A program made the position numbers and the translations under genes. Below, in pieces: positions 20,212 to 63,722 of a stretch of DNA of 64,000 bases. Within the stretch, counting starts at the first letter, position 1. The number at the start of each line of letters is the position of its first letter. The notes under the pieces were generated by a model that saw only the letters and a program-made list of their open reading frames with translations, did not search any database and was not told the DNA's origin. The stretch comes from a virus: positions 32,001 to 96,000 of the IMG/VR virus record IMGVR_UViG_3300023179_000038; one strand, 5' to 3'.

Positions 20212-20229
20212 GATTAATCTATTATACCA

Positions 20230-20664
20230 CTAAACATTTACTTGATTTGATTCAAATAATGTAGCCCCTGAAAATCTTTCCTTGGGAAAGGTTGGTACTT
20301 GTACGGCAATTCTAAAATGATTTGCCCCCTCTTTAATAATTGTTGAATAACTAGTAGTAAACACGGTAGAAACAAATTCCCAAGGATCACTATTCCATTT
20401 AAGATAAATATCAAATTCAGACCTTATGTTATTTGATGGATTCCAAACAACATTAATCATGTCATGAGATTGTTCAACAGCAACACGATAATCTATCGTA
20501 TCTGGGCTTGATGCTGCAATTTTATAGTTTGGTGACCAATGAGAAGTTCTGTTTTTATCTTCTGTAATAACTCTATATTTGACAATATATTCTTGATCTG
20601 TTCCATAAAATTCTGGAAGGTCTTTTTTAACTATGACTATCTTTTTAATATTTGAATCTGACAT
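20230..20664 (-). CDS. Minor tail protein
   Basis: Tail module position; YRVITEDKNRTSHWSP. Confidence 0.5.
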   Translation of the reverse strand: MSDSNIKKIVIVKKDLPEFYGTDQEYIVKYRVITEDKNRTSHWSPNYKIAASSPDTIDYRVAVEQSHDMINVVWNPSNNIRSEFDIYLKWNSDPWEFVSTVFTTSYSTIIKEGANHFRIAVQVPTFPKERFSGATLFESNQVNV

Positions 20665-21803
20665 TATTGAACATCCAAAGCAAACCTAAACTCAATATAG
20701 TTTGTTGTGTTTGCAGATTTAATAATAGTTTCGGCATTGTTATTTTTAATAACGGAATACCCAGTTAAACCATATAAAGGATTATTTGTGCTATTATTTT
20801 CTAATCTAATAGCATCTAAACATACATAAAAATTATCTGTTGGAGAACCATTATCAGTTATACAAGCATAAATCTTTACAACATCAACGCTGCTCCAAGT
20901 AAATCCAGTGCTTTTATAAAGTTCTTGTAACTGTTTTGTTGCAACAACATATCTACTATTTGAAAAATTGTGTTGATTTGTATCTGTTCCATTATTAAGA
21001 TTAACTTCAAACCTTGCCCATTGCCCATTAGGATCATTATGAATATCAGATGATGCAAATTCTAGCATAATTCTTACATTGTCTGGAACCGCAGTTGAAC
21101 TTCCATTTTTATTTATTACTGTAAAAGAAAGCCTGATGTCATCTGTTGGAGAATTTCTATTAAAATCTAATATCGCTCCAGTTAAATGAATGTGTTCAGA
21201 ATTTTGACCAACAACAATATGGTTATTAGAGTCAATTGTTAACTCAGAAGAATCTCCACTCATTACTATTGTGTTATTAAAAAAACGACATCTTTCATAT
21301 CTTTGAATTCTTTCTGTATTTGTAAAAATTCTATTATCTGAGTTTGTTTGAAATACACTGTATGGTTGATTAATAATATTATTGTTGTCTGATCCATCTA
21401 GCGGAGAGTAAACAATTGGAATTTCTGTTGCAGCAGTATTTGTGTGATGTTCCCAATTTTCATCTTGTGTAAATGCATAAATAGATTTACTATCATATGC
21501 GCCAGCCTGAGAGTTTGCGCCTGCTGAAAAAACTCCGACTTCACTAATTTCATATCTTTCTTCGCTTGGTAGTTCTGCCGTTAAAACAATTTTTGATATA
21601 CCATCTTCTGTTACATATCCACGAGACGTAATTGGGACACGAAACATTTCAAAATCTAACCTATCTTTGCCTGAATAGTCTCCCAGGATAGCATCAGACG
21701 TTAGTGGCTTTGCTCCACAACCAACTGCAATATAAGAGGCATATGCTGGTGCTTGACCAATCAAGTATTTTGCTAAAATATTTTTACCAGTATTAGTTAT
21801 CAT
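20664..21803 (-). CDS. Minor tail/baseplate protein
   Basis: MITNTGKNILAKYL...YIAVG...ISEVGVF tail-protein N-terminus. Confidence 0.6.
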   Translation of the reverse strand: MITNTGKNILAKYLIGQAPAYASYIAVGCGAKPLTSDAILGDYSGKDRLDFEMFRVPITSRGYVTEDGISKIVLTAELPSEERYEISEVGVFSAGANSQAGAYDSKSIYAFTQDENWEHHTNTAATEIPIVYSPLDGSDNNNIINQPYSVFQTNSDNRIFTNTERIQRYERCRFFNNTIVMSGDSSELTIDSNNHIVVGQNSEHIHLTGAILDFNRNSPTDDIRLSFTVINKNGSSTAVPDNVRIMLEFASSDIHNDPNGQWARFEVNLNNGTDTNQHNFSNSRYVVATKQLQELYKSTGFTWSSVDVVKIYACITDNGSPTDNFYVCLDAIRLENNSTNNPLYGLTGYSVIKNNNAETIIKSANTTNYIEFRFALDVQ

Positions 21804-26762: not shown

Positions 26763-26763
26763 A

Positions 26764-27420
26764 TTAAACCTCTTCCAAGGTTAATGATATGTTCCAAAAA
26801 TCATGATTATTTCCGCCACGTTTTACTACCGTATATTGAAAATTTGTAAAAAACATTTCTATTAATTCATTATATTTTGATAAATGAGTAAAGGCATCTT
26901 CATCTTTGCCAAAATTTGCATAATTATCATAAGATAAATAAACCCAAAATGAACCAGTGTTGTTTTGATACCAATCTAAAAGTTCTACTCCACCAGCACC
27001 GCCGTCAGTTGTATATTGTTCATCTGGTGAGTTAGGTCTTCCATATCCAGAAACTGACGGTATGCCAGTTGTAGAGTTAAAGTCTGGCAAAGTATAAAAA
27101 GATCTAGAAGGCAGCATGTTCCAAGATACTTCAATAGTATTTTTATCAGCAATATGATATGATCTCATACGACCATTTACCATTCTTTCTCTTTTTTCTA
27201 TTCTCATTGGACGAAAATCTATAGGTGATCTATTATCGTCTGAGAGTATTAAAAATTGATCAAAAAGATTTTCATTAGTTTCTGACCCAGTATCTGAGCC
27301 AATCTCAAGCCCAACTGGAAGATAGTATCCATCAGACAAAGTTCCAGCATTTTTGGACCAAAGCATTGCTTGTGGTCTTTGATATTTTTTTCTTCCCGAT
27401 AAATATTCACTTGATGCCAT
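26764..27420 (-). CDS. Distal tail protein-like
   Basis: Directly after TMP; RMVNGRMRSYHIADK...WNISLTLEEV. Confidence 0.65.
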   Translation of the reverse strand: MASSEYLSGRKKYQRPQAMLWSKNAGTLSDGYYLPVGLEIGSDTGSETNENLFDQFLILSDDNRSPIDFRPMRIEKRERMVNGRMRSYHIADKNTIEVSWNMLPSRSFYTLPDFNSTTGIPSVSGYGRPNSPDEQYTTDGGAGGVELLDWYQNNTGSFWVYLSYDNYANFGKDEDAFTHLSKYNELIEMFFTNFQYTVVKRGGNNHDFWNISLTLEEV

Positions 27421-30400
27421 TAAATTCTACCACTCCTTATTCTTAAAGAATCTATCTGCCTTATCTTAGACATTACAGTGTTTGCAATTTGTTCTGGATT
27501 TGCATCAGACCTTACATTAACACTTAAATTATAATTATAAACTGAGTTTCCGTCATATGTTCCGTTATTGATAGCCTTCATTTTGTCTACACCAAAAGAA
27601 TCTACAGCATATCTACTCATCACAAATTCTCCTGGTGTTAACATTGCTGGTACTGTATCTGTTCCACGAGCAAATCCACCAGAAACAAAATACTTAGGAA
27701 CTATACCTCCATTTGCTCTTCCAAACCACCCACTAAATGTATTTGTGAGAGCATTTTTTACTGTTGAAACTGGATTAGTAACTATATTTTTAACTGCCGT
27801 CGCAACATTAGATATTCCTGTTGATACAGACTTTGCCACATTTGATACACCAGAAGCCACTGACTTAACTGCATTAGATATAGGAGTAGTAACAGTAGAA
27901 ACAACTTTAGATATTGGATTATTAACACCAAGATTCATTCCAATACTTGAAGGGCTTGTTGTAGGAACTATTTTTGTTGATGCACTTGTTACTCCCGATA
28001 ATGGATTATATTTATCTGGACCAGTAAATGTTGGAACTGATGGAACGTTAGTCTGGGTATTTGACATTTGTTGTGTTTGAGGTCCTGAACCTACTTCTGT
28101 TGTTTTAGTTGGAGCATTTCCTGTATTTGTAGTGGTTGACACTACTGGAGGAGTTTCGTCATCTTTTAAAGTTACAATTTTATGATAAGTTACATATGTT
28201 TTATTGTTAAGATCATTCCAATAATTTTTAATACTTTCTACAATTCCTAATGCAGCAAACATTGAATTTTTATATTCATTACTACTTGTTTTTGCTGTAT
28301 CAATTCCATTTTTAATAGATTCCCATTCAGATCTTGATTTATCAAGAACCCTTAAACTATTAATTAGTTCATTTTTTTGAATCTCTGCAAGCCTTATAGA
28401 TTCTCGTGCTGGCTCTAATATTTTTTCTTCTAAAATTAAAATTTGATCTTGAAGGTTTTTTATTTTTTCTTCAATTTGAATTCTTGTATACCCCTGATCA
28501 TTTCTAATTTTTGCAATACTATTTTCTTTTGATTGCTCAAGTGCAGATCTTTGTTGATCTATTGCATTTTGGGCTGATTGAGATCTTGATTCTTGTACCG
28601 CTTTTGCAGCAGCAGCAATATCTCCTTGTGATAAAGCATCAGCAATTGTTAATTGAGATTTTTGTTGTTGAATTATTCTATTGTTTACTTTTTGAATTTG
28701 ATCCAATGCTTTAAATTTGTCTTCATAGGAATCGTTTATTGCTTTTTCCTGATTTTCAATATCTTTAAGTCCATACTCCCAATCATCAATTTGATATTGA
28801 ATTAATGCAATATTATTTTCAGTTTTTTGTATTAAATCTTTATTGTTTCTGGTATCTATGTCAAATTTTAATTCTATAGATTTTTCCTTAGCATCAAAGG
28901 CTTCCATGGCTTTACCAAAACCTTCATCAAATAAACCTTGCATAAAGTCTATTGTCTTTATTTGTTGTGCAAGCCTTATTGCAAACTGACTACCGCCCTG
29001 TTCTCCCGCTTCATACAGTGCTTTTAATATTGGATCTGAAATTATTGCTCTGGCTTCTTTAAATCCAAAACTATTTTTTATTGACTGCGTAATAATTTCA
29101 TCTTGATTGGCTTCTTCTATTGCTTTATTTGCATCTTCAATAGCCGTGCTTCTTTTTTCTTGTTTAATAAAATCATTATATAGCACTATCATTTTTTGAA
29201 GTTCTGCTTTATTTTTACTAGTAGCAATCATTGCCCTAAATGATTTATCGGCAATTAATTCGTATGCTTTACCAACTGGAACACCCAATTGAGTTAATTT
29301 TGCATATGCCTTATTTTGATCAACTAATTCTTGTTTTTGTTGTTGTATTGCAGATTGAAAATCTCCAGCAACAACGGAATTTAATGCTTCTTGTATATTA
29401 GTGGCATCCCTTTTTAAAGCAATTATATTTCCTTTGTTGTCAAATTTAAATAATGAATTTTTACGCTTTTCATATTCTTTTGGATCCATTCCAACAATTA
29501 ATTCTATTAGATTTTGTCCAGCACCAATCGATCTTAAATCTTGCTCAATTCCACTGAATGCTGTTATTGTTTTATTACCACCAAATAACTTATCTAGCGC
29601 TTTACGTGAAGATGCCCATCCTTCTGTAACCTTAATTTGATTTAATCTAACATCTTTTAATTTTTTAATAATATCGTCTAACGGAGAAGAACTTACTTTA
29701 GATCCTTCTACAGGAGGTATATTAGATTTTTTATCTGTAGTTACATCCTTAGAAGCAACAGTTACTTTGTATGCTGACTCAGCATAGTAATCTCCTTCGG
29801 TTTTTCCAGGATTTGCTTTAAGCCAATTCTGAATTGCTTCCTTGTTGTTACCCTCCATATTGACCATTGTTGTTAATGTTTGCAGGTACACCTTTTGTTG
29901 CTCTGGAGGTAATGAGTTAAAATATTCTTGATTTGCACGAAGAACCTCTATTTCTTTTGCACCAAGAATTTTTGTTGCAATTTCTAAATCAATCTTACCT
30001 TTTTGAGCGCTAATATAATCTATGGTTTTTTGTAGTTGCGCTGCTGCGATTGGATTATTGCTATAAAAACTTAAGGCAACCCCTACATCAACTACTTGAC
30101 CAGACTTGCTTATCTCAGAAAATAATTTTAGATATTTTTCTGCATCAGCAGCAGTTTTTGTACTAATATCGGCAAGGAATTTAGTTTGTTGCTGCTTTAA
30201 TGGTTTTCCATTTTTATCAACAAACAAACTTGATATAGCAATAGCCTGGTTTGCAAATGCACCACCAAATTTAGTTACAATACTCATAACTTTTTCTAAA
30301 GATTTTTTATCATTACTAAATGTTTCCATTAAGTTAATAATTTGCATTGGGTCCATCTGTCCAGAAGCAACTTGCATTTTTAATGTATATTGAAGTTCTT

Positions 30401-33400
30401 TGGACATACCACTATCATTAATTAAATCTTTAGCCATGGGAACAATGTCTTCCATTGCTGTACCCTTATATTTTTTTGTAATGGCTTTATCTATACCAGT
30501 TTCTAAAGCACCACGAACAGCACTAGAAGATTTTGCATAAGTATTTTGAATATCTGTAATCAATCTTCCGTTTTCAGCAATTAATGTTGCATTTGCTTTT
30601 TCATATTCACCCTGCAATCTAGTTGCTTCCGCAATATCATTTGCTGCCTTTGCATTTTCAATTCTTTTTTCGTATTCTAATCTTAAAGAATCTTGCATTT
30701 CTTGACTTTGTTCTAAAGCCATTTTTTGTATTGCAACATTAGCACCAGATGCTATTCCAAGTTTTTGTTGTTGTCCTTTTTGTGCAAAGTATAATGCTCC
30801 TGCTGAAATAGTTGCACCTATTGCTGCACCTATTGCAGTTCCAACAACTGGCACAACTGATCCTGCTGCTGCTCCTGTTGCTGCTCCACCGAGTATTCCA
30901 CCAGCAATTGCCCCACCAATACCATAACCAGCCATACCAACTTTTGTTTGTGTTTGTGTTAATGCCCCTGGTGCTGCAGCATTCAATATTCCAAATTTTT
31001 GTTGTAAATCTTTTCTTGATTCTTCTACCAATCTTAATCTAAGTTGTAATGGATCCTTCATTAAATTTTCTCCATTAACACCTACTAATTCAATTAATTT
31101 TGCATTAACCTGTATGCCAAAAGAGTAATCGCCCAATTCAGAAGAAATATTTGCTGCAATGCTTCTTGCCTGTGCTGGATTTATTGCTCCTGATGCAATT
31201 CCTGTTGCAAGTTGATTTAACAACTGGTTCTGTGCAGTTTGCCTTCCATTAGTTTTAATAGATTGAGATAGGTTTGAAAGCATTGCCTTGCCACCTTCAG
31301 ATTGAACGTAACTTTCACCAAAAGTTGTTTTTCCTGTTTGAATCTGAAATTGAGAAAGCATTTGTGATCTTCTTCTATCCATAATTTCGCCAGCACGAGC
31401 AGTTCCAGCGAACTCAGAAAGATCCTGAATAGCCTTTTCGCCACTACCCATGGCTTCAGCCATTTTCATTGCGTTGTCTTGTGCTTTATCAAATGCCATA
31501 CGTAATGCAAGTGTTGCTGCCACTACAGCAGTTAAACCAACAGCAAATGCTCCAAGTGGACTTGTGATAAGTGGCAATAGCATTGTTAATGTAATTAATG
31601 GCATCATTAATTTCTGTGCTACCTCGCCAACTTTTCCTGGTGCCATAGACGCAGCCATCATAACCCCAGATGCTGCCATCATTCCAGTTCCAGCACTCAT
31701 TCTATTTCTTCTGACTGAAACATTGTCTTCTTTATTTATACCATTAGCAACCATTCCAGTGATTGTGCTTTGTTTTAATAATCTTTTTTCTTTAATAGCA
31801 TCAAGTCTTTGCTGTTTATCTATTTGTCTACGCAATGATTTTTGCATTGGATCAATAGGACCAGTTCCATAAAGAGCAGTTCTAGATGCAACTGCTTTTT
31901 GTGACTGTGTTCTAGCCCCGTCAACTAGTGCTGTACCTAATTGTTTTCCAGTTATCTTTGCATCATCAATAAATTCTTTTGCTCCAACTACCAGACCCTT
32001 TCCAGATTCCTGTCCAACTTTTTGCATTCTTCTTGATGGAGATTTAATCTGTAACGCTTCTTCTGCTGCAGTTGGCATAGAATTTACTATTCTTGCAATA
32101 CCACGTTTTAAGGTTCCTTCTGTGCGTTTTGTTGCTGCAATAATTTCAGTAGTTTGTTTAGACATTGTTTCTGTTCTTGCGGTTGCTGCATCTGCCACTG
32201 CACCTGCATAAAGTCTAAAGTTTTTAGAAACATCTTTTGCTTTAATAACACCAGTTGACATATCTCTATCTATTGCAGAAAGAACTCTGCCTTGAATCAT
32301 TAACTCATCACCAACAAGTGCAGTTCCTTGTGTTACTTTTGCAGTAATTGATTGAATTTGTGATTCTGTTGCACCTGATTTAGATAAATATTGTAAATAT
32401 AGTTCTCTATTTTTTCTTGAAGACTTTAAAGAGTTTGATAGATTATTCTCTGCACCAGTTTGTGTAGTCCAAACATCTGAATTCCAAGCAGCAAGCAATT
32501 TTTTCTGTGAATTATTTAATTCAATGACGTGTGCCCTGTCTAACTGTGTTGCAGCAGTAATTTGTTTAGTAGTAGCACCAAGGGCTGTCATTTTCTTTTC
32601 AATTGCTTTTGCTGCTGCATTTGCTTGATCTAATTCTGCTTGTGCTGCTGACATACCTCGTTCACTAATTAGTTGTGTCTGTATTGTTCTTCTTTCTCCA
32701 GCGCCACGTGCATTAAATGTTGCAGTTCTTCCAACCCAATCTGATTTAGCAAATGCTGGACCTGCAATCTTGCCTTTGCTTGCTGCTGCTAAACGAACCT
32801 GCTCTTTAAATTGTTCAAGATTAATTTTTGTTTCAGATGCCAATTTTTCTAATGCAATTTTTAGTATGTCGTCAATTTGACCGAGAGTTCCATCAATAAG
32901 ACTTTGAATTCTTGCAGTAGTTGCTTGTTGTTTTGTACTTATATTAAAAGATTCTTGTCCAACATTAACAGATCCTCCTGCAAACTTAGATAATCTGCCA
33001 CCACCTATCATAAACTTAATTGCTGGTTTATTTGCTGGATCTTGTGCTGGTCCTGCTGGAATTACTGCTTCTCCTGGTGTAAGCATGGATGGAACGGAAT
33101 CTGTTCCTCTTGCATAGTATCTTACTCCAATAGTACCTTTGTTAAATTTCTTTGGTCCTTTACTACCTCTACCGCCAACAAAACCAGCGGTTGGCATAAA
33201 CGCTGCTTGAGCACTAATTGCTTTTCTATATACATTAACCAATGCAGTAAGAGCATTGGTTTCAGATGTAAAGGTTTGTGTGAGTTTGGTATGAACTTGA
33301 TCTAAAGATGATGCAACTGAGGCAGCCTCTAGTTGTTCTTGTGTCATATACTGTGTTTGATTGCCAAGGGATTGAGATGATTGTCCAACTCTATTAAACA

Positions 33401-35144
33401 AACCTTTAACACTAGTAAATAATTTAATTATATTTGCTAAACCGTTTGCAAGCAAACCAAAAGTCATAAGCGCTACTGGTCCAATACCAGCCAAAACTGT
33501 AGTTAAAATAACAGCAAAGTTTTTTGCTCCATCACTAAGATTATTGAATCTATCTAATACTTTTGAAATAAAATCTACAACTGGTGTTATTGCTTTTAAG
33601 AATGACTCTCCAATTGGAGCCAAAGTAAGTTTTAGATCCTCTATTGATTTTTTAAATTTATACATTGGAGATTCTTCAACACGTTTTAATTCTCGTTCTG
33701 CCAAAATAGCCAACTCTTCTGTTGTTGCCTGAGTCAAACTTAGTACACGACTTGCCTGATTTCCTTGTGCAATAACATTTTGGAATAAAGTAGAAAGACG
33801 TGAAAATTGAAATTTACCAAATAATTGTTCTATAGCACGTGCACGATTTAATGGATCTAGTGTATCTAACGCTTTAGCAAAATCAATAACAACACCCTTA
33901 ACATTTCCTTTATTTGCCTCTACAATTCCTTTAATATTTATACCCATTGATCCAAGCATTTTGCTTGCTTTTTCTGTTGGATTAATTAATGATGCAAGAC
34001 CAGACTTTAATGCGTTAGCACCTTCTGATGCGTTGATACCGCCTTCTTTCATAGCGGTTAAGAAAAACGCTAAATCTTCTACATCTCCACCAAGTTGTTG
34101 TACAACTGGACCTGCTTTAGGAATTGCAATTGTTAAATCTTCAATAGATACGACAGTTTGGTTTTCAACTGCGTTAAGAAAATTAATCTTTTTTGTTAGA
34201 TCTTCTGCAGCAATTCCAAATGCATTTGATAAAGAAATAGTAGTTTCTAAAGCCTGCTCTTGTTCAACTCCACCAAGTATAGAAAGTCTTGTTGCTTGAT
34301 TTACCTGTGCTAATAAATCAGCCCCCATTTTACCGCTTGCAGCAGCGGTTGCTGCCATTTCCATAGTTTTTTCAACAGCAACACCATATTTTGTAAATTC
34401 TTTAGCAAGCAACTGAATCTCTTTTAACATTGCGTTTGTTTCTTCGCCAGTTGTAAACATTTCTCCATAAACACGTTTAAATCTAATTGCTTGCTCTTCA
34501 ATTTGCATAAATGTTCGTGCTGCCTGAGTTCCAAGCATTGCGAGGGGAATTGTAAAACCAACCATTAACTGACGACCAGCCCACTGTGTATTTTTACCAA
34601 AATTTAAAAGATTTGTAGATCCTTGTTTTAATAATTGATTTAATAATTGCTGTCTTTGTGCTGCAATTTGAGTTTTTGTTGCCAGGCTTTCCATATCAAG
34701 CGCTAAAGGCCTAACTGCAATAGCCTTCATTGCTCCATTAGCATCACGACCCATCTTAATATATTGAGTCTGTAAAGTTTTTACTCTTTCTCTTGATACC
34801 TTTTCGATAGTATCAAACTCTTGTTTAAATAGTCTTCCAAAAGTTTTTGTTGATGCTCCAGCATACCTAAAATATTCTTTTACTGTAAATTTATTTTTTT
34901 CTAAAGCATTAGTAAATGATTCTGTAGACGTACGAATTGTACGCATATCTGCTGCAAATTTTCCAGTTGCATTTAAAGAGTTAACCAAATTTTGTTGCAA
35001 ATTTGAAGATACTGCTGCAGCAGCAGCACCACTCTTTGCCATTGAGGTGTGAAAGGCTGATATTTGACGCTGAAGCAGTTTAATACTTGATAACGCTTCA
35101 GAGGTATCAATATTTACTTGTATATTTGACTGAACATCAGCCAT
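27420..35144 (-). CDS. Tape measure protein
   Basis: 2574 aa, helical and Ala-rich, TP901-like core (EGANALKSGLASL), TM segments, SPSR motif; after the chaperones. Confidence 0.93.
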   Translation of the reverse strand: MADVQSNIQVNIDTSEALSSIKLLQRQISAFHTSMAKSGAAAAAVSSNLQQNLVNSLNATGKFAADMRTIRTSTESFTNALEKNKFTVKEYFRYAGASTKTFGRLFKQEFDTIEKVSRERVKTLQTQYIKMGRDANGAMKAIAVRPLALDMESLATKTQIAAQRQQLLNQLLKQGSTNLLNFGKNTQWAGRQLMVGFTIPLAMLGTQAARTFMQIEEQAIRFKRVYGEMFTTGEETNAMLKEIQLLAKEFTKYGVAVEKTMEMAATAAASGKMGADLLAQVNQATRLSILGGVEQEQALETTISLSNAFGIAAEDLTKKINFLNAVENQTVVSIEDLTIAIPKAGPVVQQLGGDVEDLAFFLTAMKEGGINASEGANALKSGLASLINPTEKASKMLGSMGINIKGIVEANKGNVKGVVIDFAKALDTLDPLNRARAIEQLFGKFQFSRLSTLFQNVIAQGNQASRVLSLTQATTEELAILAERELKRVEESPMYKFKKSIEDLKLTLAPIGESFLKAITPVVDFISKVLDRFNNLSDGAKNFAVILTTVLAGIGPVALMTFGLLANGLANIIKLFTSVKGLFNRVGQSSQSLGNQTQYMTQEQLEAASVASSLDQVHTKLTQTFTSETNALTALVNVYRKAISAQAAFMPTAGFVGGRGSKGPKKFNKGTIGVRYYARGTDSVPSMLTPGEAVIPAGPAQDPANKPAIKFMIGGGRLSKFAGGSVNVGQESFNISTKQQATTARIQSLIDGTLGQIDDILKIALEKLASETKINLEQFKEQVRLAAASKGKIAGPAFAKSDWVGRTATFNARGAGERRTIQTQLISERGMSAAQAELDQANAAAKAIEKKMTALGATTKQITAATQLDRAHVIELNNSQKKLLAAWNSDVWTTQTGAENNLSNSLKSSRKNRELYLQYLSKSGATESQIQSITAKVTQGTALVGDELMIQGRVLSAIDRDMSTGVIKAKDVSKNFRLYAGAVADAATARTETMSKQTTEIIAATKRTEGTLKRGIARIVNSMPTAAEEALQIKSPSRRMQKVGQESGKGLVVGAKEFIDDAKITGKQLGTALVDGARTQSQKAVASRTALYGTGPIDPMQKSLRRQIDKQQRLDAIKEKRLLKQSTITGMVANGINKEDNVSVRRNRMSAGTGMMAASGVMMAASMAPGKVGEVAQKLMMPLITLTMLLPLITSPLGAFAVGLTAVVAATLALRMAFDKAQDNAMKMAEAMGSGEKAIQDLSEFAGTARAGEIMDRRRSQMLSQFQIQTGKTTFGESYVQSEGGKAMLSNLSQSIKTNGRQTAQNQLLNQLATGIASGAINPAQARSIAANISSELGDYSFGIQVNAKLIELVGVNGENLMKDPLQLRLRLVEESRKDLQQKFGILNAAAPGALTQTQTKVGMAGYGIGGAIAGGILGGAATGAAAGSVVPVVGTAIGAAIGATISAGALYFAQKGQQQKLGIASGANVAIQKMALEQSQEMQDSLRLEYEKRIENAKAANDIAEATRLQGEYEKANATLIAENGRLITDIQNTYAKSSSAVRGALETGIDKAITKKYKGTAMEDIVPMAKDLINDSGMSKELQYTLKMQVASGQMDPMQIINLMETFSNDKKSLEKVMSIVTKFGGAFANQAIAISSLFVDKNGKPLKQQQTKFLADISTKTAADAEKYLKLFSEISKSGQVVDVGVALSFYSNNPIAAAQLQKTIDYISAQKGKIDLEIATKILGAKEIEVLRANQEYFNSLPPEQQKVYLQTLTTMVNMEGNNKEAIQNWLKANPGKTEGDYYAESAYKVTVASKDVTTDKKSNIPPVEGSKVSSSPLDDIIKKLKDVRLNQIKVTEGWASSRKALDKLFGGNKTITAFSGIEQDLRSIGAGQNLIELIVGMDPKEYEKRKNSLFKFDNKGNIIALKRDATNIQEALNSVVAGDFQSAIQQQKQELVDQNKAYAKLTQLGVPVGKAYELIADKSFRAMIATSKNKAELQKMIVLYNDFIKQEKRSTAIEDANKAIEEANQDEIITQSIKNSFGFKEARAIISDPILKALYEAGEQGGSQFAIRLAQQIKTIDFMQGLFDEGFGKAMEAFDAKEKSIELKFDIDTRNNKDLIQKTENNIALIQYQIDDWEYGLKDIENQEKAINDSYEDKFKALDQIQKVNNRIIQQQKSQLTIADALSQGDIAAAAKAVQESRSQSAQNAIDQQRSALEQSKENSIAKIRNDQGYTRIQIEEKIKNLQDQILILEEKILEPARESIRLAEIQKNELINSLRVLDKSRSEWESIKNGIDTAKTSSNEYKNSMFAALGIVESIKNYWNDLNNKTYVTYHKIVTLKDDETPPVVSTTTNTGNAPTKTTEVGSGPQTQQMSNTQTNVPSVPTFTGPDKYNPLSGVTSASTKIVPTTSPSSIGMNLGVNNPISKVVSTVTTPISNAVKSVASGVSNVAKSVSTGISNVATAVKNIVTNPVSTVKNALTNTFSGWFGRANGGIVPKYFVSGGFARGTDTVPAMLTPGEFVMSRYAVDSFGVDKMKAINNGTYDGNSVYNYNLSVNVRSDANPEQIANTVMSKIRQIDSLRIRSGRI

Positions 35145-52157: not shown

Positions 52158-52904
52158 TTATCTATAAGATTTTTTGTGCCAAAAAAATCTTTTATACCCA
52201 GAGTTAAATACACTTCTTATATTTGCTGTTATATTTTTAACTTGAGAAACTTTTTCTTGTGTTTCTATATATTCTGATTCGTATTCTTCTCTCTTAAATG
52301 GGATTATTTGCAATAAAGGTGTTCCTTTTGAAACAACGCCTTTAAAATTCTTTTTTACTAAAAAAGACATTAAACCATTAGATGGATAGGTATCAGTATC
52401 AATTATTGCAGATATTGTAAATAATGGAGAAACTTCTTGATGTTGTGGTTGTATAAAGAGTGTGCTATATCCAGGATCGGTTTCAACAGCCCAAATAACA
52501 TTTACTCTAAATAAATACTCAATGTATTGGTCTTTGTCAAATGGATATCCAGTAACTTGTTTAATATCATGATTTCCAATTAAAGCCTTGTTTCCAAGAC
52601 TAACAAACGTTTTCATTACTTCGGGAATATCAAAGTGTGGATTATCTCCAGTTGTATCTATATATATATCAAACGGTGCCTTTATTATATACCCACTTGA
52701 AAGCATATCTAAAAATGCAATACATCTTTTAACAGTTATTTGCTGATGACCATTTACTGGTGTTGTATCGTTATTATAAAAACTTTCAAGTTTTTTATAC
52801 CAAATTGGTATATTTTTTGAAGCAGGTTCTGGAGCAGGAAAAACATTTTTTATTTTTGGAAAAGTGTTAATAAACCTAACTACTGAAGGCCTGTTTTTTT
52901 TCAT
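52158..52904 (-). CDS. DUF6065-like phage protein
   Basis: TVKRCIAFLDMLSSGYII...IIDTD...KGTPLLQIIPFKR. Confidence 0.5.
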   Translation of the reverse strand: MKKNRPSVVRFINTFPKIKNVFPAPEPASKNIPIWYKKLESFYNNDTTPVNGHQQITVKRCIAFLDMLSSGYIIKAPFDIYIDTTGDNPHFDIPEVMKTFVSLGNKALIGNHDIKQVTGYPFDKDQYIEYLFRVNVIWAVETDPGYSTLFIQPQHQEVSPLFTISAIIDTDTYPSNGLMSFLVKKNFKGVVSKGTPLLQIIPFKREEYESEYIETQEKVSQVKNITANIRSVFNSGYKRFFWHKKSYR

Positions 52905-52948: not shown

Positions 52949-54118
52949 TTAAGCAGGAGTACTTGGAGTAAAGTCTTTTACAAGCATTTTCTTAGTAAAG
53001 AAGTTATCATATGGCTCGCAGTTTATAGCAACTTTTTGCATATATAATTCTACAGCCTCAACAAGTTCAATATCAACAAATGCATTGTCTTCAAATGAAT
53101 ATCTTTGATATGTTGTATCTATTTGTGATGATTGAATAAACTTTACAACGCCATCTTTTTTAGTTAAAATCCAGTGTGTATTAGAAAACATATCTCCATC
53201 AATGTATACGAAGTCTGTTTCTGTTTGAATACCAATCCATGTAATTGTAGTTTCAACAACATTTAAATCTGATACATTTACGTTTGAAGGAAGTGTCCAA
53301 TTTTGCCAATATGCTGCAGAGTTATCATTAGACTCATCTCCAAGATCTAAGGCTAAAAGTTTATCTCCAACTTGAAGTTGACCAGCAGGCTTTGTTGCTT
53401 GTGGTTCACCTGCAACTGTTGATAAAAGAACTTCTGTATTTATGTTTAGTGACCAGTCAAAGCCAAATGCACCAAAAGCACCAAATGCACCAAAAGCACC
53501 GAAAGGTGCAAAGGAAAATGTTGTAGTTACGTTGTTTGAGTTTGAAGATGTTCCAGAGTTTCCATTGGCATTAGTTGCACGAACGTTATATGACTGTGCA
53601 GTTCCTTGCTCTTGTCCAACGTCAACAGATGTTGATGATGTATTTCCAGATTTACCATCTGTTGATTGCCAGAAATAATTAGTTATTGCGCTACCACCGT
53701 TATTTGGCGCTGACCAAGAAATTCTGTCAACTCCAGCAGATGGTGATGATGCTGAAGGCGCTGAAGGTGTTTGTGGTACGGTTGTTGCAGTAATGCTATT
53801 AGACGCAGCAGATGCTGGAGAGTTTCCAACTGCATTTGTTGCTACAACTGTAAATGTGTATGCTGTGCCTGATTGTAGACCAGTTACAGATATAGGAGAT
53901 GATGCTCCTGAAGCAGTATATGATCCTGGAGAGGATGTTACTGTATAAGATGTAGCAGCAGGGCCTGATGAATCATGTGTAAAGGTTACATCTGCTCGTC
54001 CATTATTAAATGCACGTCCCGATCCAACATTTGTTGCTGATACTGAAGTTGGTGCCTTTGGCTCCAAAAAGTCATTTGATGCTTGGGACTTTTTACCTGA
54101 TTTTTTACCTGCTGCCAT
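52949..54118 (-). CDS. Two-FN3-domain protein with (FGA)n repeat and C-terminal Hint domain
   Basis: FN3 motifs (VTGLQSGTAYTFTVVATN; WSAPNNGGSAITNY); Hint blocks SLNINTEV..L.VGD, SNTH, NFF...LVKD. Confidence 0.8.
   Translation of the reverse strand: MAAGKKSGKKSQASNDFLEPKAPTSVSATNVGSGRAFNNGRADVTFTHDSSGPAATSYTVTSSPGSYTASGASSPISVTGLQSGTAYTFTVVATNAVGNSPASAASNSITATTVPQTPSAPSASSPSAGVDRISWSAPNNGGSAITNYFWQSTDGKSGNTSSTSVDVGQEQGTAQSYNVRATNANGNSGTSSNSNNVTTTFSFAPFGAFGAFGAFGAFGFDWSLNINTEVLLSTVAGEPQATKPAGQLQVGDKLLALDLGDESNDNSAAYWQNWTLPSNVNVSDLNVVETTITWIGIQTETDFVYIDGDMFSNTHWILTKKDGVVKFIQSSQIDTTYQRYSFEDNAFVDIELVEAVELYMQKVAINCEPYDNFFTKKMLVKDFTPSTPA
53460..53504 (-). repeat. 9-bp tandem repeat encoding (FGA)4-FG
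   Basis: Alternating ACCAAATGC/ACCAAAAGC units on the plus strand. Confidence 0.85.
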
Positions 54119-54150: not shown

Positions 54151-55500
54151 TTAAGCCATTAAGTCGCCGTATACAACCCATGTGTTTTCTGCTCTCTTGA
54201 AAAGAGTTGCAGATGACCATTGAGTGCGTAACTTTAAGCCTGGTGTAGCATTAACTGTAACTCCAGCAGATGCTGCAATTGTAACCTGTCCAGTTGAAGT
54301 TTGAAGAATATCAATAGATGTTCCTACTGGATATGCTACTGCAGAGTTTGCAGGAATTGTAATTGTAGTTGCAGATGATGAAGCAACTTCAATCAAAGAA
54401 TCTCTTTCAGTAAGTGATGAAAGTGTATATGAAGCAGATTTTTGAATAATTGGTGTTCTAGATGGTACACCTTCTTTAGATTGAGTTCCATCTGTAAAGG
54501 CTACTCCAGATGCTGCAACTGTTACAAGACCTGTAAATGTTGGAGTATTGATTGGTGCTTTTGCAGCAAGTCCATTAGTAACTGTTGTTGCAAAGTTTGC
54601 ATCGTCACCAAGTGCTGCTGCAAGTTCATCAAGAGTATTAAGTGCTGCTGGGGCAGATGCGATTACTGCATTTACCTGAGATGTTGCATCTGCAATAGCC
54701 TCTGACTTAGCAGTTGCGATTGCTGCAGCCTGTGCTGTAGATACTGGCTTGTTTGCATCTGATGTATTGTCAACATTTCCAAGTCCTACTGAAGACTTTG
54801 TAAGTGCTGCTACTGCAGTTGCAATCTTTGAGTCTGCTGCTGTTCCTGCTGCTGTAACTGCATCTGTTTCTGCTGTATCTACATAAGACATTGTTGCAAG
54901 AAGCGATGTATTTGCAATTCCATGAACATTTGTTGTTTGTGAATTGTGTGTTGAAATCTTTGTATCTGCTGCTGTTCCTGCTGCTGTAATTGCTGCTGTT
55001 TCAGCATCTGAAGCCTTTCCATCAGTATAAACTTTTGTTGCAAGAAGTGCTGTGTCGGCAATTCCATGAACATTTATTGTTGCTGCTGTGTGGTCAGATA
55101 ATTGAGTTAAACTAGCCTTTTGTGATAGGGCAACCAGCATGGTTGATGCAAATGTTGCGTCATCTTCAATTGCTGCTGCTAACTCATTAAGTGTATCTAA
55201 TGCTCCTGGAGCACCATCAATTAGGTTTCCTAATTGTGATAAAGGAACTCTTCCTTGTGCGTCAAGTGATGCTACACCGTTTACTTGTCCCTTTGTGTCT
55301 ACTGGAACATAGTCATCTAGGGATCCGCCAAGATCTTCTAAATTTTTAAAATATGATAAATCTTCCCAATGGTTAATTCCATCACCAATTTTAAATTGTC
55401 CAGTATCAGATTCAAATCCGATTTCTCCTGCTGCCAAAATTGGGTCTGCTGCAGTCCATTGTGCTGCGGTTCCTCTGCGCTGTTGCATTCTTGTTGCCAT
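54151..55500 (-). CDS. Fibre protein with Mtd-N/hyaluronidase-type N-terminus
   Basis: RRGTAAQW...GEIGFESDTGQFKIGDG; two TL.ELAAA motifs; NVHGIA repeats; VGLGNVDNTSD; WVVYGDL C-terminus. Confidence 0.78.
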   Translation of the reverse strand: MATRMQQRRGTAAQWTAADPILAAGEIGFESDTGQFKIGDGINHWEDLSYFKNLEDLGGSLDDYVPVDTKGQVNGVASLDAQGRVPLSQLGNLIDGAPGALDTLNELAAAIEDDATFASTMLVALSQKASLTQLSDHTAATINVHGIADTALLATKVYTDGKASDAETAAITAAGTAADTKISTHNSQTTNVHGIANTSLLATMSYVDTAETDAVTAAGTAADSKIATAVAALTKSSVGLGNVDNTSDANKPVSTAQAAAIATAKSEAIADATSQVNAVIASAPAALNTLDELAAALGDDANFATTVTNGLAAKAPINTPTFTGLVTVAASGVAFTDGTQSKEGVPSRTPIIQKSASYTLSSLTERDSLIEVASSSATTITIPANSAVAYPVGTSIDILQTSTGQVTIAASAGVTVNATPGLKLRTQWSSATLFKRAENTWVVYGDLMA

Positions 55501-55549
55501 GTTTTATATCTCCTTGTGGGTTCTTCCCGTTATATTATAACATCAATTT

Positions 55550-56011
55550 TTAATTGAAGTTATCGATTGCAAATCCACCATCCCATGTTATTGTCCATGC
55601 ATTAGTGTTGTAACTTCCAGCATCAACTGGTGTAGAACTTGCGTCATTATAGTAGCCAGCATCTTGATATTGACTTACTATAAAACCAGTTCCATCAATT
55701 GCAGTATCATGAATGTGCTGTGGTAAATCAATTGTGTCATTCATTGTTGCAAGAGTAACCCATTGATTGTCAGCAAAAAACGAAATTCTTCCAGTTAACG
55801 AATCAAGATATAATTGTCCACTTACTGCAGATTCTGGTGCGCTTTCATATGAAGAAATTGCAAAATTGGCTAAAGAATCATCTACGTATAATTTAGTAGC
55901 AGCGTGTGTGTCAATTGTTGGAGATCCAACAACTACCGCACCTCCAAAACTACCAGTTCCATTAACCTGTAGTCCATTTTTTACTCTAAAGTCTTTGTTG
56001 ACTGTAGCCAT
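55550..56011 (-). CDS. Fibre adaptor/structural protein
   Basis: KDFRVKNGL N-terminus, HAATKLYVD, C-terminal DAG/DGG motifs. Confidence 0.6.
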   Translation of the reverse strand: MATVNKDFRVKNGLQVNGTGSFGGAVVVGSPTIDTHAATKLYVDDSLANFAISSYESAPESAVSGQLYLDSLTGRISFFADNQWVTLATMNDTIDLPQHIHDTAIDGTGFIVSQYQDAGYYNDASSTPVDAGSYNTNAWTITWDGGFAIDNFN

Positions 56012-56029
56012 TTAACATCTTCTCCTTTA

Positions 56030-57679
56030 TTAGTCACCGTATGCAAGCAACATGCCAGATACGATAACCTCTGTTGAATTATTTTGTGCATTTACCTTTA
56101 ATGAGTACGATCCATTTGAAAATTCTGCGGTAACATCCCCAAGAATTCCATTTGTATGTACTATTGCATATTCTGTAATTGCTACATTACCAGCGTCATC
56201 CTTAGTTACTAGAACTTCGGAAACTTGTGAGTGCTGTCCTTCACGAACTCTCACAAGAAACTTTGCTGCAGGGAATGAATTTCCATTCCAAGTATAAACA
56301 GTTGATACACCTGAGTTTGCAATAAATGTGTATGTACCAACTTGCTTTGTTGCCCAGGTAAAATTTATCTCCTGATATGTTGGAGAAGCATTTGCGTTAC
56401 CTGCTGCAATTGCGTCATTGATATTTCCACCTACAGCATCAATTGCTCTTTGATTTGTAAAGTATAAATTTGATCCTTCAGAAATATCATCTGTATCAAG
56501 TGCCTCAATTGTTGAATTAACACCAGATATGGCATTAGCAATATCTGTTGCTACTGCATCTTGTGCACGTTGATCTGTAAAGTATTTGTTTAAACCTTCT
56601 GCAACATCATCTGTATCAAGATCATCAATACGAGTGTTTGTTGCTGAATCAAGACCGTCTGCATAAGACTGTGCTGCTGCTTGTGCTGCCGAAGCAGAGC
56701 CTGCTGCATCGTAATTTACAGCAAGACCGTCAGCGTAATCTTCTGCTGCTGTCTGAGCATTATTTGCTGCAGTTGTAGCGAATGATTCTGCGTTAGACTG
56801 TGCTGTATTTGCATAGCCTTGTGCTGCTGTATCAAGATCAGAAATTTCTGAATCTACATAAGATGTATCAGCCTTTGTTGCAACCAAGTTAGCAACATCT
56901 GTTGCATAGTTTGGATTGTCAGCAATTGCTGCTGCTAACTCATTTAATGTATTAAGAAGATCAGGAGCAGAATCTACAAGACCTGCAACTGCGCCATCTG
57001 TGTATGTGTTAGAAGAGGCAATGGCTGCTGCTTGTGCAGCGTTAGCCTTTGTAGTGGCATCTGCTGATGCAGTTGCCTCTGCTGCTGCTTGTGCAGCGTT
57101 AGCCTTTGTAGTAGCATCTGCTGATGCAGTTGCCTCTGCTGCTGCTTGTGCAGCGTTAGCCTTTGTAGTGGCATCTGCTGATGCAGTTGCCTCTGCTGCT
57201 GCTTGTGCAGCGTTAGCCTTTGTAGTAGCATCTGTTGCTGCATCTGAAATTGCTTCTGCCTTAGCGGTAGCAACTTCTGCATCTGTAGCAAAATCTGCAT
57301 CAAGACTTGTTGAAATTTGTACATTTTGTGTACCATCAAAAGATACAGAACCTGTTATATCTCCTGTTAATTCAATTGTACGAGCAGTTTGAAGTGCTGT
57401 TGCGGTATCTGCATTACCAGTTAAATCACCAGTTACATCACCAGTTACATTTCCACTTAAATTAGCAGTAATGGTTCCAGCAGAAAAGTTTCCATCTGCA
57501 TTACGTTTTACAATTGTGCTTGGTGTATTTTGATCTGTTGCTGTTCCACCAATAAGACTTACAATGTAGTCTTGGTCTGCTTGTTTCTTTGTAAGAATGT
57601 CATTACCAGCGACGGTTGCTTCTGCACCTTCAACGATAAGACCTTGCTTTATTTTAAAGTTTTTGGTTATTGTTGCCAT
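56030..57679 (-). CDS. Long coiled-coil fibre protein
   Basis: GNADTATAL, LNTLNELAAAI, TDD..EG.N.YFT repeats, 19-aa repeats; start at MATITK after AAGGAG. Confidence 0.75.
   Translation of the reverse strand: MATITKNFKIKQGLIVEGAEATVAGNDILTKKQADQDYIVSLIGGTATDQNTPSTIVKRNADGNFSAGTITANLSGNVTGDVTGDLTGNADTATALQTARTIELTGDITGSVSFDGTQNVQISTSLDADFATDAEVATAKAEAISDAATDATTKANAAQAAAEATASADATTKANAAQAAAEATASADATTKANAAQAAAEATASADATTKANAAQAAAIASSNTYTDGAVAGLVDSAPDLLNTLNELAAAIADNPNYATDVANLVATKADTSYVDSEISDLDTAAQGYANTAQSNAESFATTAANNAQTAAEDYADGLAVNYDAAGSASAAQAAAQSYADGLDSATNTRIDDLDTDDVAEGLNKYFTDQRAQDAVATDIANAISGVNSTIEALDTDDISEGSNLYFTNQRAIDAVGGNINDAIAAGNANASPTYQEINFTWATKQVGTYTFIANSGVSTVYTWNGNSFPAAKFLVRVREGQHSQVSEVLVTKDDAGNVAITEYAIVHTNGILGDVTAEFSNGSYSLKVNAQNNSTEVIVSGMLLAYGD
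57024..57234. repeat. 57-bp tandem repeat, about 3.7 copies (ADATTKANAAQAAAEATAS)
   Basis: Copies start at 57024, 57081, 57138, 57195; near-identical. Confidence 0.93.
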
Positions 57680-57695
57680 TTTTTTTATCTCCTTT

Positions 57696-58142
57696 TTATG
57701 CCTTAAGTCCAATACGTGCAAAACGTGCTGTGACTGGCGTAATTGCAGGATCTGGAGTGACTGTTAAGGTCACGGTATTTCCAGCCCGTGAGACGCTAAT
57801 GGTGCCAATATTCCCATCGTTGTCTATAGTTCCATATTCGCTGACGTTAATGTTTGATCCGTCAACTAAAATTGTTATTTCTGTAGCATAAAACTTATTA
57901 TTACCTGCCGATGTCATAGACAAAGAAACAATATATTTAATCATGCGCCAATCTGATGCATTGAAATTATCTATTATTGTTGCGTTTTCTATTCCATTGA
58001 CTGTATTTTCGTTATTGCCTGCTGTTCCAAGATCTGTTGCTTGTGAAGTAGCAGAGTCAATTAAATCTTCATAATCTTCCTGTGTAGGACGATCACCAGT
58101 TTGAAATTTTTCTTTTACTAGGGGTATTGATATTCTTGACAT
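57696..58142 (-). CDS. Structural protein sharing its C-terminal domain with 56030..57679
   Basis: FQTGDRPTQEDYEDLID N-terminus; KYIV...EI...SEYGTI domain. Confidence 0.6.
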   Translation of the reverse strand: MSRISIPLVKEKFQTGDRPTQEDYEDLIDSATSQATDLGTAGNNENTVNGIENATIIDNFNASDWRMIKYIVSLSMTSAGNNKFYATEITILVDGSNINVSEYGTIDNDGNIGTISVSRAGNTVTLTVTPDPAITPVTARFARIGLKA

Positions 58143-60036: not shown

Positions 60037-60066
60037 AGGACCTCTCTTAGGAGGGGTTCTTTTTTA
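60037..60066 (+). terminator. Rho-independent terminator
   Basis: AGGACCTCTC-TTAG-GAGGGGTTCT stem (with G-U pairs) followed by a T-run. Confidence 0.75.
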
Positions 60067-61039
60067 TTTCTTGAAGTATCCAGTTATAAGTTTTTTCAAT
60101 TCCCTCTTTTAATGTCATAGAATAATCCCAACCTAACTTTTCTTTAACCAGGTTGTTATTAGAATTTCTACCCCTGACACCCAAGGGTCCAGTAATATGC
60201 ATTTTACTTAAAACCTTGCTTTCAACACTACAGGCAATATCTACTAACTGATTTATAGTAACTATTTCTTCAGACCCAATATTAACTGGTCCAGTAAAAT
60301 CTGATTGCATGAGTCTTCTTGTTGCTTCTATGCATTCATCAATGTATAGGAATGAGCGGGTTTGTTCTCCGTCCCCCCAAATTTCTACAGAATCTTTTGC
60401 TTGTATAACTTTACGACATATTGCAGCAGGGGCCTTTTCTTTTCCACCATCCCAAGTTCCTTCTGGGCCATAAATATTATGATATCTGGCAATGGCTACA
60501 GGAATTTTATTGTTTCTATTAAAGGCTAAAAACATTCTCTCGCTAAACAGTTTTTCCCAACCATATTCGCTGTCAGGATCTGCAGGGTATGCATCAGACT
60601 CTTTAAGGCCAGGATTATTTACATCTAACTGCTTATAGTCAGGATACATGCAAGCAGAACTTGAATAAAATATTTTGGTTTTATTAATATCGTGTTTTGC
60701 GTTTAATCTTGATTGAGCCCTTAAAAGATTAAGATTTATAAGTGCAGAATTTTCCATAATTTGAGAATCATTTATGCCAGTAAAAATATATCCTGCGCCA
60801 CCCATATCTGCAGCAAATTGATATATTTCATCAAATGCTATTGTGCCCACGAGATGTATAATGCTTTCAATATTTTCATAGACAGATAAATCTTTTTTCA
60901 TAAATTCATCTGCTTTTGTTTTTGAAAAATCTGGAAACTTTAAATCAACACCACGAACCCAATATCCTTCAGATTTAAGCCTATTAACCATATGGCTACC
61001 TATAAAACCACCTGCACCTAAAACTAATGCTGATTTCAT
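60047..61039 (-). CDS. GDP-mannose 3,5-epimerase-like extended SDR
   Basis: GAGGFIG, AADMGG, SSSACMYP, YGWEK, HNIYGP, EKAPAAICRK, WGDGEQTRSF. Confidence 0.88.
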   Translation of the reverse strand: MKSALVLGAGGFIGSHMVNRLKSEGYWVRGVDLKFPDFSKTKADEFMKKDLSVYENIESIIHLVGTIAFDEIYQFAADMGGAGYIFTGINDSQIMENSALINLNLLRAQSRLNAKHDINKTKIFYSSSACMYPDYKQLDVNNPGLKESDAYPADPDSEYGWEKLFSERMFLAFNRNNKIPVAIARYHNIYGPEGTWDGGKEKAPAAICRKVIQAKDSVEIWGDGEQTRSFLYIDECIEATRRLMQSDFTGPVNIGSEEIVTINQLVDIACSVESKVLSKMHITGPLGVRGRNSNNNLVKEKLGWDYSMTLKEGIEKTYNWILQEIKKNPS

Positions 61040-63131: not shown

Positions 63132-63722
63132 TTACATAGTTTCTATTTTGGGTTTTTCTTTAGTATTTGTTTTTCTAATGTCTGTGTATAAGTATTGAGC
63201 ACCATGTTTAAAAAACCAGTGATCTGGCTCTGTATAAAAAAAGAATGCATTGGCAACCAAATTAGTTTTTGGATTTGGAAAATCTTCTCTCCAATGTTGT
63301 TGATCATTGCCATATGATATAACTGCATCATTTTCTTCTGCTTCAAACTTTATACCCTCAACATAAAAATCCCAAGGTGTTTTATGAAAAATCGTGTAGT
63401 TTATATGATATGTACAAGCGTTGTCGTCCTTGTGTTTCCAAAGTTTTGCTTTATCCCCTTCATAAATACTTAGCACACACCATGATGGCAATAAAGTTTC
63501 TGACTCAAATTCTTCTCTTGCCAAAGGTAATAACATTTCATGAAACTTTCTAAGTGGCTCTATATTTGTACCGTGAGTATTGTCCCAAATTGTCCATTGG
63601 TGTCTACCAAACGATTCATCATAAGTACTCTTGTCTGTTGACCATAAGTTCATTGCTAGATTTTGCAACTCTAAATGTTCTGCTGGTGGAAATACTGTTT
63701 TTAATAAATAAGGAGTTTTCAT
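63132..63722 (-). CDS. 2OG-Fe(II) oxygenase-like protein
   Basis: LWKHKDDNAC...WDFYVEG...QHWRE. Confidence 0.72.
   Translation of the reverse strand: MKTPYLLKTVFPPAEHLELQNLAMNLWSTDKSTYDESFGRHQWTIWDNTHGTNIEPLRKFHEMLLPLAREEFESETLLPSWCVLSIYEGDKAKLWKHKDDNACTYHINYTIFHKTPWDFYVEGIKFEAEENDAVISYGNDQQHWREDFPNPKTNLVANAFFFYTEPDHWFFKHGAQYLYTDIRKTNTKEKPKIETM

Follow-up and report, generated by a model that had tools for sequence, protein, structure and literature searches.

Within a 64,000-nucleotide stretch of viral DNA (the window; positions 32,001 to 96,000 of IMG/VR record IMGVR_UViG_3300023179_000038), we describe a gene encoding a 389 amino acid protein, P0001, in which two fibronectin type III (FN3) domains are followed by a short aromatic repeat and a C-terminal Hint domain. 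The source genome is an uncultured freshwater phage record of 110,677 bp, rated 99% complete, and contains one copy of this gene. On profile and modeling evidence, the C-terminal domain is a genuine Hint domain with a Ser nucleophile. Judged from its conserved residues and by analogy with related domains, it probably acts as a cap that cleaves itself off between Trp222 and Ser223, which would leave the aromatic tail as the new C-terminus. The open reading frame (ORF) at 52949-54118, proposed in a preliminary description of the window, was borne out and lies on the minus strand, which that description had not given. The two FN3 domains were likewise recovered, both by Pfam (fn3, E 1.2e-7, two stretches) and as two β-sandwiches in an AlphaFold2 (AF2) model, and the Ser223 codon, 53450-53452, matches the preliminary description exactly. 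The full-length AF2 model has a predicted local distance difference test score (pLDDT) of 87 and consists of the two β-sandwiches, a disordered segment at residues 204-220 and a compact domain comprising residues 223-382. The coordinates of all features are given in Table 1.

The Hint fold became clear solely with a family alignment, as the single sequence gave neither a Pfam nor a PDB match. A Pfam search with P0001 returned fn3 alone and left the C-terminal 189 residues without any match, including to Hint, and a phmmer search of the C-terminal part against the PDB yielded noise alone. Residues 215-389 were folded by AF2 with a 45-sequence alignment (A2), resulting in a model with a pLDDT of 89.2 and a predicted TM-score of 0.85. 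The top PDB matches of this model in Foldseek are all Hint-fold proteins, i.e. bacterial intein-like (BIL), intein or Hedgehog domains. The best match is BIL2 from Tetrahymena (6y75; E 8e-7, TM-score 0.65-0.75), at an identity of just 12-13%, and the other top matches include the C. thermocellum BIL domain (2lwy), the Prp8, DnaB and gp41-1 inteins and Hedgehog (1at0, E 1e-4). Comparing the family profile with PDB sequences identified the gp41-1 intein (E 3e-4) and BIL 2lwy (6e-4), and among the 45 relatives, 11 are matched by Pfam Hint_2 and 7 by Intein_splicing. AF2 modeling, Foldseek and the family profile thus agree on the Hint fold that had been proposed for the C-terminal region from the single sequence. 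In the profile-PDB alignment, Ser223 coincides with residue 1 of the intein and Asp382 with its terminal Asn; in block F, Asp371 takes the place of the His, and residue 364, an Ala in P0001, that of the Asp. The preliminary description had assigned the intein blocks by hand, with SxxH as block B, Ala/Asp in block F and Lys-Asp at the site of His-Asn. This assignment is correct because the hidden Markov model alignment to gp41-1 places the same residues.

The predicted catalytic positions are conserved across 219 non-identical complete Hint domains of the family. At position 1, which corresponds to Ser223, 164 of them have Ser and 53 have Cys, and the remaining two are alignment gaps; Ser or Cys is therefore present in all 217 aligned domains. 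The first residue of block B (Ser312 in P0001) is Ser in 161 and Thr in 49 domains (Ser/Thr in 210/219), while the block B His position (His315) is occupied by His in 195 and by Gln in 21. Block F contains a family-specific CEPxD motif (Cys 175, Glu 194, Pro 206, Asp 206), which reads CEPYD in P0001. At position 4 of block F, 143 domains have Ser and 22 have Thr (165/219), and the Ala364 of P0001 is rare. At the terminal position (Asp382 in P0001), 150 domains have Asp, 61 Asn and 6 Glu, and the preceding residue is His (96), Phe (68), Tyr (40) or Lys (4); Lys381, and with it the terminal Lys-Asp pair (4/219), is rare.

Both ends of the domain vary together: 150 domains combine Ser1 with Asp and 51 combine Cys1 with Asn, and Cys is never found together with Asp. 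His-Asn ends occur in 49 of the 53 Cys-type relatives, whose proteins typically terminate in ...HN-K-stop, whereas the Ser-type ends in Phe, Tyr or His followed by Asp and then mostly 4-7 further residues. Taking this pairing as proof that the two ends are coupled was rejected, because position 1 switches only about three times on the family tree. The preliminary description had pointed to Lys-Asp in place of His-Asn as non-canonical. The substitution is real, but it does not mark a degenerate domain, because Asp is the terminal residue in 150/164 Ser-type domains; judged from this alignment, the combination of Ser1 and terminal Asp is a conserved sub-type rather than decay. As already anticipated, canonical splicing is not expected for P0001, which has neither the terminal Asn nor a nucleophile at the +1 position (Phe383).

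The peptide FSFAPFGAFGAFGAFGAFGFDW, corresponding to residues 201-222, directly precedes Ser223, in agreement with the preliminary description. At the DNA level, it corresponds to 4.8 copies of a 9-bp unit in tandem (53463-53505), and at the protein level residues 204-220 are predicted to be disordered (pLDDT <50 in the full-length model). This FG tract is the genome's only Phe/Pro/Gly-rich low-complexity segment. In 213 proteins of the family, the 40 residues before the Hint domain contain 24% Phe, 16% Gly, 16% Pro and 11.5% Ala. The stretch is at least 25% aromatic in 160 of these proteins and less than 10% aromatic in 22, in which mostly Pro-rich or other low-complexity linkers are found. 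The repeat units vary widely and include FGA, FGFTP, FGFSP, PFFPP, YFPP, WFPP and HGYGGFY. A comparison of the pre-Hint repeat across relatives, as suggested earlier, revealed that its length varies between close relatives; it differs by 6-32 residues between proteins with identical Hint domains (P0009/P0014, P0011/P0012, P0049/P0050 and L024/L027). In P0019 and P0025, the same repeats connect several internal Cys-rich domains. Because the length is variable, the units are diverse and the repeat also joins internal domains, it behaves as a slippage-prone, aromatic and disordered linker or tail and not as a defined core peptide. A collagen-like (GAF)n structure was considered as well, and rejected because relatives use five-residue units such as FGFTP and PFFPP.

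Searching with residues 1-205 retrieved many relatives, and 27 out of 108 are devoid of a Hint domain. Starting from one such capless relative found with the N-terminal half, 80 loci were fetched, and 21 of them contain an FN3-FN3-repeat gene without a Hint domain. In fourteen of the 21 capless alleles, the stop codon follows the repeat after no more than a few residues, e.g. in ...FGFSPPFR-stop, and six others terminate with a small module rich in Cys. Several capless alleles terminate in ...FR, i.e. in the residues that precede Cys1 in the capped proteins P0054 and P0055. They are located in the identical gene slot, after four fibre-module genes; in the capless locus L089, the FN3 part is 84% identical and the neighboring ribonucleotide reductase (RNR) gene 90% identical. 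Within 3.6-4 kb downstream of the capless alleles, no Hint coding sequence was found, except in L112. Because capless alleles occupy the same slot, it appears that the mature protein can do without the Hint domain, and alleles ending at the bare repeat are what a self-removing cap predicts. In L112 (2852-3637), the Hint coding sequence is in a different frame than the FN3-repeat part, owing to either a frameshift within the repeat or an error in sequencing. The Cys-rich C-terminal module that replaces the Hint domain is found in L129, L132, L133, L134, L146 and L151 (...CVRSYCWQACPACCGGCGC).

The Hint gene is the last gene of a conserved tail-fibre block. In 80 related loci, the upstream fibre genes are present in 61-75 cases and the gene order recurs. 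The FN3-repeat-Hint protein is therefore best read, from its genomic context, as a structural appendage of the tail-fibre module.

Taken together, the fold, the profile homology, the conserved catalytic positions, the C-terminal placement, the capless alleles, the BIL precedent and the position in the fibre block favor a self-cleaving cap. BIL domains cleave at their N- or C-terminal ends and are found in hypervariable regions of non-conserved proteins (PMC7765530). In P0001, the N-terminal junction is the sole sizeable substrate because just a short tail follows the Hint domain. In the proposed mechanism, Ser223, aided by Ser312 and His315, would attack the carbonyl of Trp222 and initiate an N-to-O acyl shift. 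The resulting ester would then be resolved, most simply by water, which would free two products, namely an 18.8-kDa Hint fragment and a 22-kDa mature protein (residues 1-222) that ends in the repeat. The Hint domain would thus act once and on itself, and as a removable cap it may prevent the sticky tail from doing harm before the protein has folded or assembled. The conserved Asp382 may in addition cut off the 7-residue tail, or allow a BIL-type ligation of this tail to Trp222. The preliminary description had proposed that autoprocessing exposes the repeat in a manner resembling the display of a ribosomally synthesized and post-translationally modified peptide (RiPP). The first part stands insofar as the Hint domain has a putative Ser nucleophile and processing between Trp222 and Ser223 would be its likeliest activity; the RiPP-like display is not supported.

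Several points weigh against a self-cleaving cap. We infer cleavage from conserved residues and by analogy, and we infer the location at the fibre tip or on the virion solely from gene order and FN3 content. The C-terminal module appears to be swappable, being either absent, a Cys-rich knot, a Ser-type or a Cys-type Hint domain, and this also fits a tip that is retained. The pairing of Ser with Asp and of Cys with Asn is weak evidence for a cooperation of the two ends. Finally, the P0001 copy is atypical and could be slower or even inactive, because its penultimate residue is Lys381, its +1 residue is Phe383 and block F position 4 is Ala364.

Some of these points recur in the alternative that the Hint domain remains unprocessed and serves as a folded distal knob, i.e. 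an adhesin or structural tip, with the repeat as its flexible stalk. Sister phages swap their C-terminal modules, which is typical for receptor-binding tips, Ala364 and the Lys-Asp end of P0001 are both rare in the family, and 21 relatives have Gln instead of the block B His. Nevertheless, a passive knob requires neither the position 1 nucleophile that is present in all 217 aligned domains nor the block B His found in 195/219, and the capless alleles imply that the protein works without the Hint domain. We therefore consider a retained knob unlikely, although it survives better than the other alternatives.

A BIL-type splicing or ligation reaction comes next and is considered rather improbable. 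Here, Asp382 would cyclize and the amino group of the tail would attack the ester, joining residues 1-222 to FTPSTPA and excising the Hint domain; in relatives, the attacking group could also be a +1 Ser/Thr or a Lys. Nucleophile-free ligation is inefficient in known cases, which counts against this reaction in P0001 with its Phe at +1 and its penultimate Lys instead of His. Furthermore, the capless alleles end at the bare repeat and have no equivalent of the tail. On the other hand, the tails are conserved inside sub-clades, a +1 Ser or Thr is present in 48 relatives of the Ser/Asp type, and in P0106, P0111 and P0139 tails of 38-95 residues after ...HD-S resemble true C-exteins. The BIL structure from C. 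thermocellum is also among the top fold matches, and this domain is reported to ligate without a nucleophilic side chain (reference 37 in PMC4031507). C-terminal cleavage or ligation could still occur in the Ser-type domains with their prevalent terminal Asp, because some inteins can cyclize with Asp, Gln or Glu instead of Asn (PMC4031507).

Instead of being hydrolyzed, the ester between Trp222 and Ser223 might be passed on to another nucleophile, which would covalently attach the end of the aromatic tail either to a partner in the virion or to a component of the host envelope. We regard this as improbable. Such an ester transfer would be a sub-case of processing at Trp222 and Ser223, namely a Hedgehog- or BUBL-style reaction performed by a virus particle, and the Ser/Asp sub-type would then constitute a new mechanistic class, for which the prospects are equally slim.

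The possibility that the repeat is a RiPP-like core peptide, which enzymes would modify before the Hint domain releases or displays it, was evaluated in light of prolyl 4-hydroxylase (P4H)-like genes. In related loci, a P4H-like family is encoded downstream of the Hint gene, and its profile matches the P4H of B. anthracis (5iax, E 1e-13) and of PBCV-1 (5c5t, 3e-6). The comparison covered 55 non-identical genes for which 5 kb or more of downstream DNA was available; P4H-like genes adjoin the Hint gene in 20/27 cases in which the repeat contains at least 10% Pro, in contrast to 0/28 below this value (Fisher p 2e-9, Spearman 0.71, both uncorrected for shared ancestry). In loci L001-L080, these genes are located 0-8 kb downstream with up to nine copies (L057), and the copy number rises with the Pro content. 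The P0001 genome contains six P4H-like ORFs (L082-L087; C1:5681-8000, 19660-21027 and 25882-27039) outside the window, at genome positions 5.9-27 kb and thus 58-79 kb away from the Hint gene, and the repeat has one Pro. A tailoring of the P0001 repeat is not supported, because it contains a single Pro and the P4H-like genes are at least 58 kb away. The 'cluster 12' gene (C1:21880-22608) is also located 58-79 kb from the Hint gene, and no solved relative was found with its family profile. Also outside the window, at C1:96393-97283 on the minus strand, a 297 amino acid ORF contains a long Pro-Thr/Ala linker (PVAPTPTPTPTPAPTPAPTP); this is the genome's only strongly Pro-rich segment and a possible target of the P4H-like enzymes.

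Thus, although the P4H-like genes make tailoring plausible in some Pro-containing relatives and a DUF6065-like gene adjoins the Hint gene in this genome, a RiPP-like system is very improbable, and the likeness to a core peptide drawn in the preliminary description is not supported: the repeat has one Pro with the six P4H-like genes far off, varies freely in length, doubles as inter-domain linker (P0019, P0025), is swapped for a stretch with less than 10% aromatic residues in 22/213 relatives, is predicted to be disordered and ends the capless alleles in bare form, the Pro-P4H association is uncorrected for shared ancestry, and the neighbors of the Hint gene are DUF6065-like and DUF6817 genes, with no RiPP enzyme family found adjacent to it.

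Returning to the self-cleaving cap, its closest precedents are type A BIL domains (Amitai 2003 and Dassa 2004, as far as they are summarized in PMC7765530; C. thermocellum BIL, PDB 2lwy). P0001 shares with them the Hint fold, the profile match and a hypervariable, repeat-flanked site in a non-conserved protein. Like them, it contains no +1 nucleophile (Phe383), so that self-cleavage is expected, and the Cys-type relatives of P0001 end in His-Asn. Type A domains have Cys1 and His-Asn; in most of the family, P0001 included, Ser1 and a terminal Asp are found instead, with P0001 ending in Lys-Asp, and block F of the family contains an invariant CEPxD motif. The hosts also differ, as they are phage fibre-module proteins in which the domain is terminal and followed by a tail of 1-7 residues. 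Type B BIL domains contain all intein motifs except for the C-terminal one (PMC7765530); P0001 has blocks A and B and a divergent block F (Ala364, Asp371). Different from class 1 inteins, P0001 has neither the C-terminal Asn (Asp382) nor a +1 Cys, Ser or Thr (Phe383), and there is no conserved host site that splicing would restore, as the domain is terminal and capless alleles simply end. We assign the domain to the Hint/BIL class, within which it represents a new sequence sub-type in a new host context.

The best structural match of the P0001 Hint domain (E 8e-7) is BIL2 of the Tetrahymena BUBL proteins (6y75/6tmm), which passes its N-terminal cargo on without restoring the host protein (PMC8616854). 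With Cys1 and Asn at its ends, BUBL BIL2 attaches a ubiquitin-like domain to Lys, whereas P0001 has Ser1 and Asp. In the Hedgehog Hog domain (1at0), the cargo likewise precedes a C-terminal Hint domain, which cuts the chain at residue 1 of the domain itself and so gives the cargo a newly formed C-terminus, as predicted for P0001. However, the nucleophile is Cys in Hog and Ser in P0001, P0001 contains no sterol- or adduct-recognition region but just FTPSTPA after the Hint domain, and lipid transfer is a property of Hog. Two further systems resemble P0001 in function or appearance. Peptidase S74 chaperone domains are located at the C-terminus of phage spikes and fibres and cut themselves off at a Ser after assembly. 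The role proposed for the P0001 cap, as a self-removed C-terminal domain of a fibre protein, is similar, but the folds are unrelated and the Pfam search of P0001 returned no S74 match. Nup98 combines Phe-Gly (GLFG) repeats with self-cleavage at an aromatic-Ser bond (Peptidase S59). This is a resemblance alone, because the folds differ and Nup98 is eukaryotic; in addition, the Nup98 protease domain precedes the cut and remains with the repeats, whereas the Hint domain of P0001 follows the predicted cut.

The layout of P0001 and of the neighboring genes is summarized in Table 1, in which the PHROG tail-fibre matches of the upstream genes apply to the block 54151..57721 as a whole. The N-terminal peptide is a possible attachment segment; Pro20 is present in at least 90% of the family sequences in the consensus, and residues 14-18 form a short helix in the AF2 model. 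The DUF6065-like gene adjoins the Hint gene in 62/80 related loci, a search with its profile identified no PDB relative, and it is followed by a DUF6817 gene and a class II-type RNR gene. The 563 amino acid fibre protein (56030-57721, minus strand) contains four near-perfect copies of an Ala-rich unit of 18-19 residues (ATASADATTKANAAQAAAE). Auxiliary genes near the fibre block include one for a nucleotide-sugar epimerase (60047-61039, minus strand; phrog_540, E 2e-74) and one with a weak 'ferrochelatase' PHROG match (63132-63722, minus strand). Two very large ORFs, both on the minus strand, comprise 2574 (27420-35144) and 1451 amino acids (22407-26762).

Table 1. Position of P0001, its predicted domains and motifs, and adjacent genes in the window
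Feature	Position	Strand	Remarks
Baseplate-connector-like gene	57696-58142		followed by the three fibre-module genes below
Fibre-module gene, 563 aa	56030-57721	-	PHROG tail-fibre match
Fibre-module gene, 153 aa	55550-56011	-	PHROG tail-fibre match
Fibre-module gene, 449 aa, Pfam Mtd_N	54151-55500	-	PHROG tail-fibre match
FN3-FN3-repeat-Hint gene (P0001)	52949..54118	-	389 aa; stop codon 52949-52951; ORF list and translation
N-terminal peptide, residues 1-22, contains SQASNDFLEPKAPT	54053..54118	-	kept in family consensus
FN3 domain 1, ~residues 22-112	53783..54055	-	Pfam fn3 best stretch 42-107; β-sandwich, pLDDT >90
FN3 domain 2, ~residues 118-199	53522..53767	-	second Pfam fn3 stretch; AF2 β-sandwich, pLDDT >90
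Aromatic repeat, residues 201-222, FSFAP-(FGA)4-FGFDW	53453..53518	-	predicted disordered
Ser223, Hint position 1, predicted nucleophile	53450..53452	-	aligned to intein residue 1
Hint domain, residues 223-382 (160 residues)	52973..53452	-	AF2, Foldseek and profile versus PDB
Block B S312-N-T-H315, TxxH equivalent	53174..53185	-	
Family-specific block F motif C367-E-P-Y-D371	53006..53020	-	Asp371 at intein block F His site
Lys381-Asp382 at intein His-Asn site	52973..52978	-	
Tail FTPSTPA, 7 residues after Hint	52952..52972	-	+1 residue Phe383, not a nucleophile; translation
DUF6065-like gene	52158..52904	-	phrog_7084; atlas clusters partly carry DUF6065

The Hint-cap family is large and almost wholly viral. 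A scan of IMG/VR identified 237 related loci, and a profile search of 1.84 billion representative proteins yielded 1418 matches at E <=1e-3 and 505 at <=1e-10. In nearly all of the best 150 representative proteins, the Hint domain is located at the extreme C-terminus. Look-alikes in BFVD originate from uncultured Caudovirales and are automatically named 'Fibronectin type III' or 'Hint domain containing protein'. No homologue was detected in 50,697 records of cultured phages by tblastn with the whole protein and with the Hint part, even at E 1. Scanning 185,579 species genomes identified one locus, on a 10-kb contig in a metagenome-assembled genome from a lake, which is uninformative on the host. 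The portal protein is 45% identical to the portals of Streptomyces phages (~128-134 kb), and this similarity hints at an actinobacterial host. No description of the FN3-repeat-Hint architecture was found in the literature searched, and the papers on phiCbK and CBB concern terminase inteins alone. Several related phages contain two Hint-capped genes per genome (L005/L063 on one contig, L020, L045 and L080), and the linkers of two such genes in one genome can differ, e.g. aromatic versus TPTPS. The 1108 amino acid protein P0093 contains two tandem Hint domains, the first of which is followed by a Ser at +1 and an 18-residue spacer; the repeat before this first domain is (IGT)n and not aromatic.

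What is known of Hint domains comes mainly from inteins, from the processing domains of Hedgehog proteins and from a small number of bacterial BIL domains. The family described here adds a large group of viral fibre-module proteins whose low-complexity aromatic tail is capped by a Hint domain, and its conserved Ser1/terminal-Asp sub-type departs from the textbook pair of Cys and His-Asn. If the cap removes itself, it would represent a second, unrelated solution to the problem that is handled by the intramolecular chaperones of tail spikes, and it might also be of use to protein engineering as a cysteine-free module that cleaves itself. The coexistence of capped and capless natural alleles in one gene slot makes this question directly testable. 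In addition, the Pro-containing tails that are encoded beside P4H-like genes in relatives may reveal a substrate for orphan phage oxygenases.

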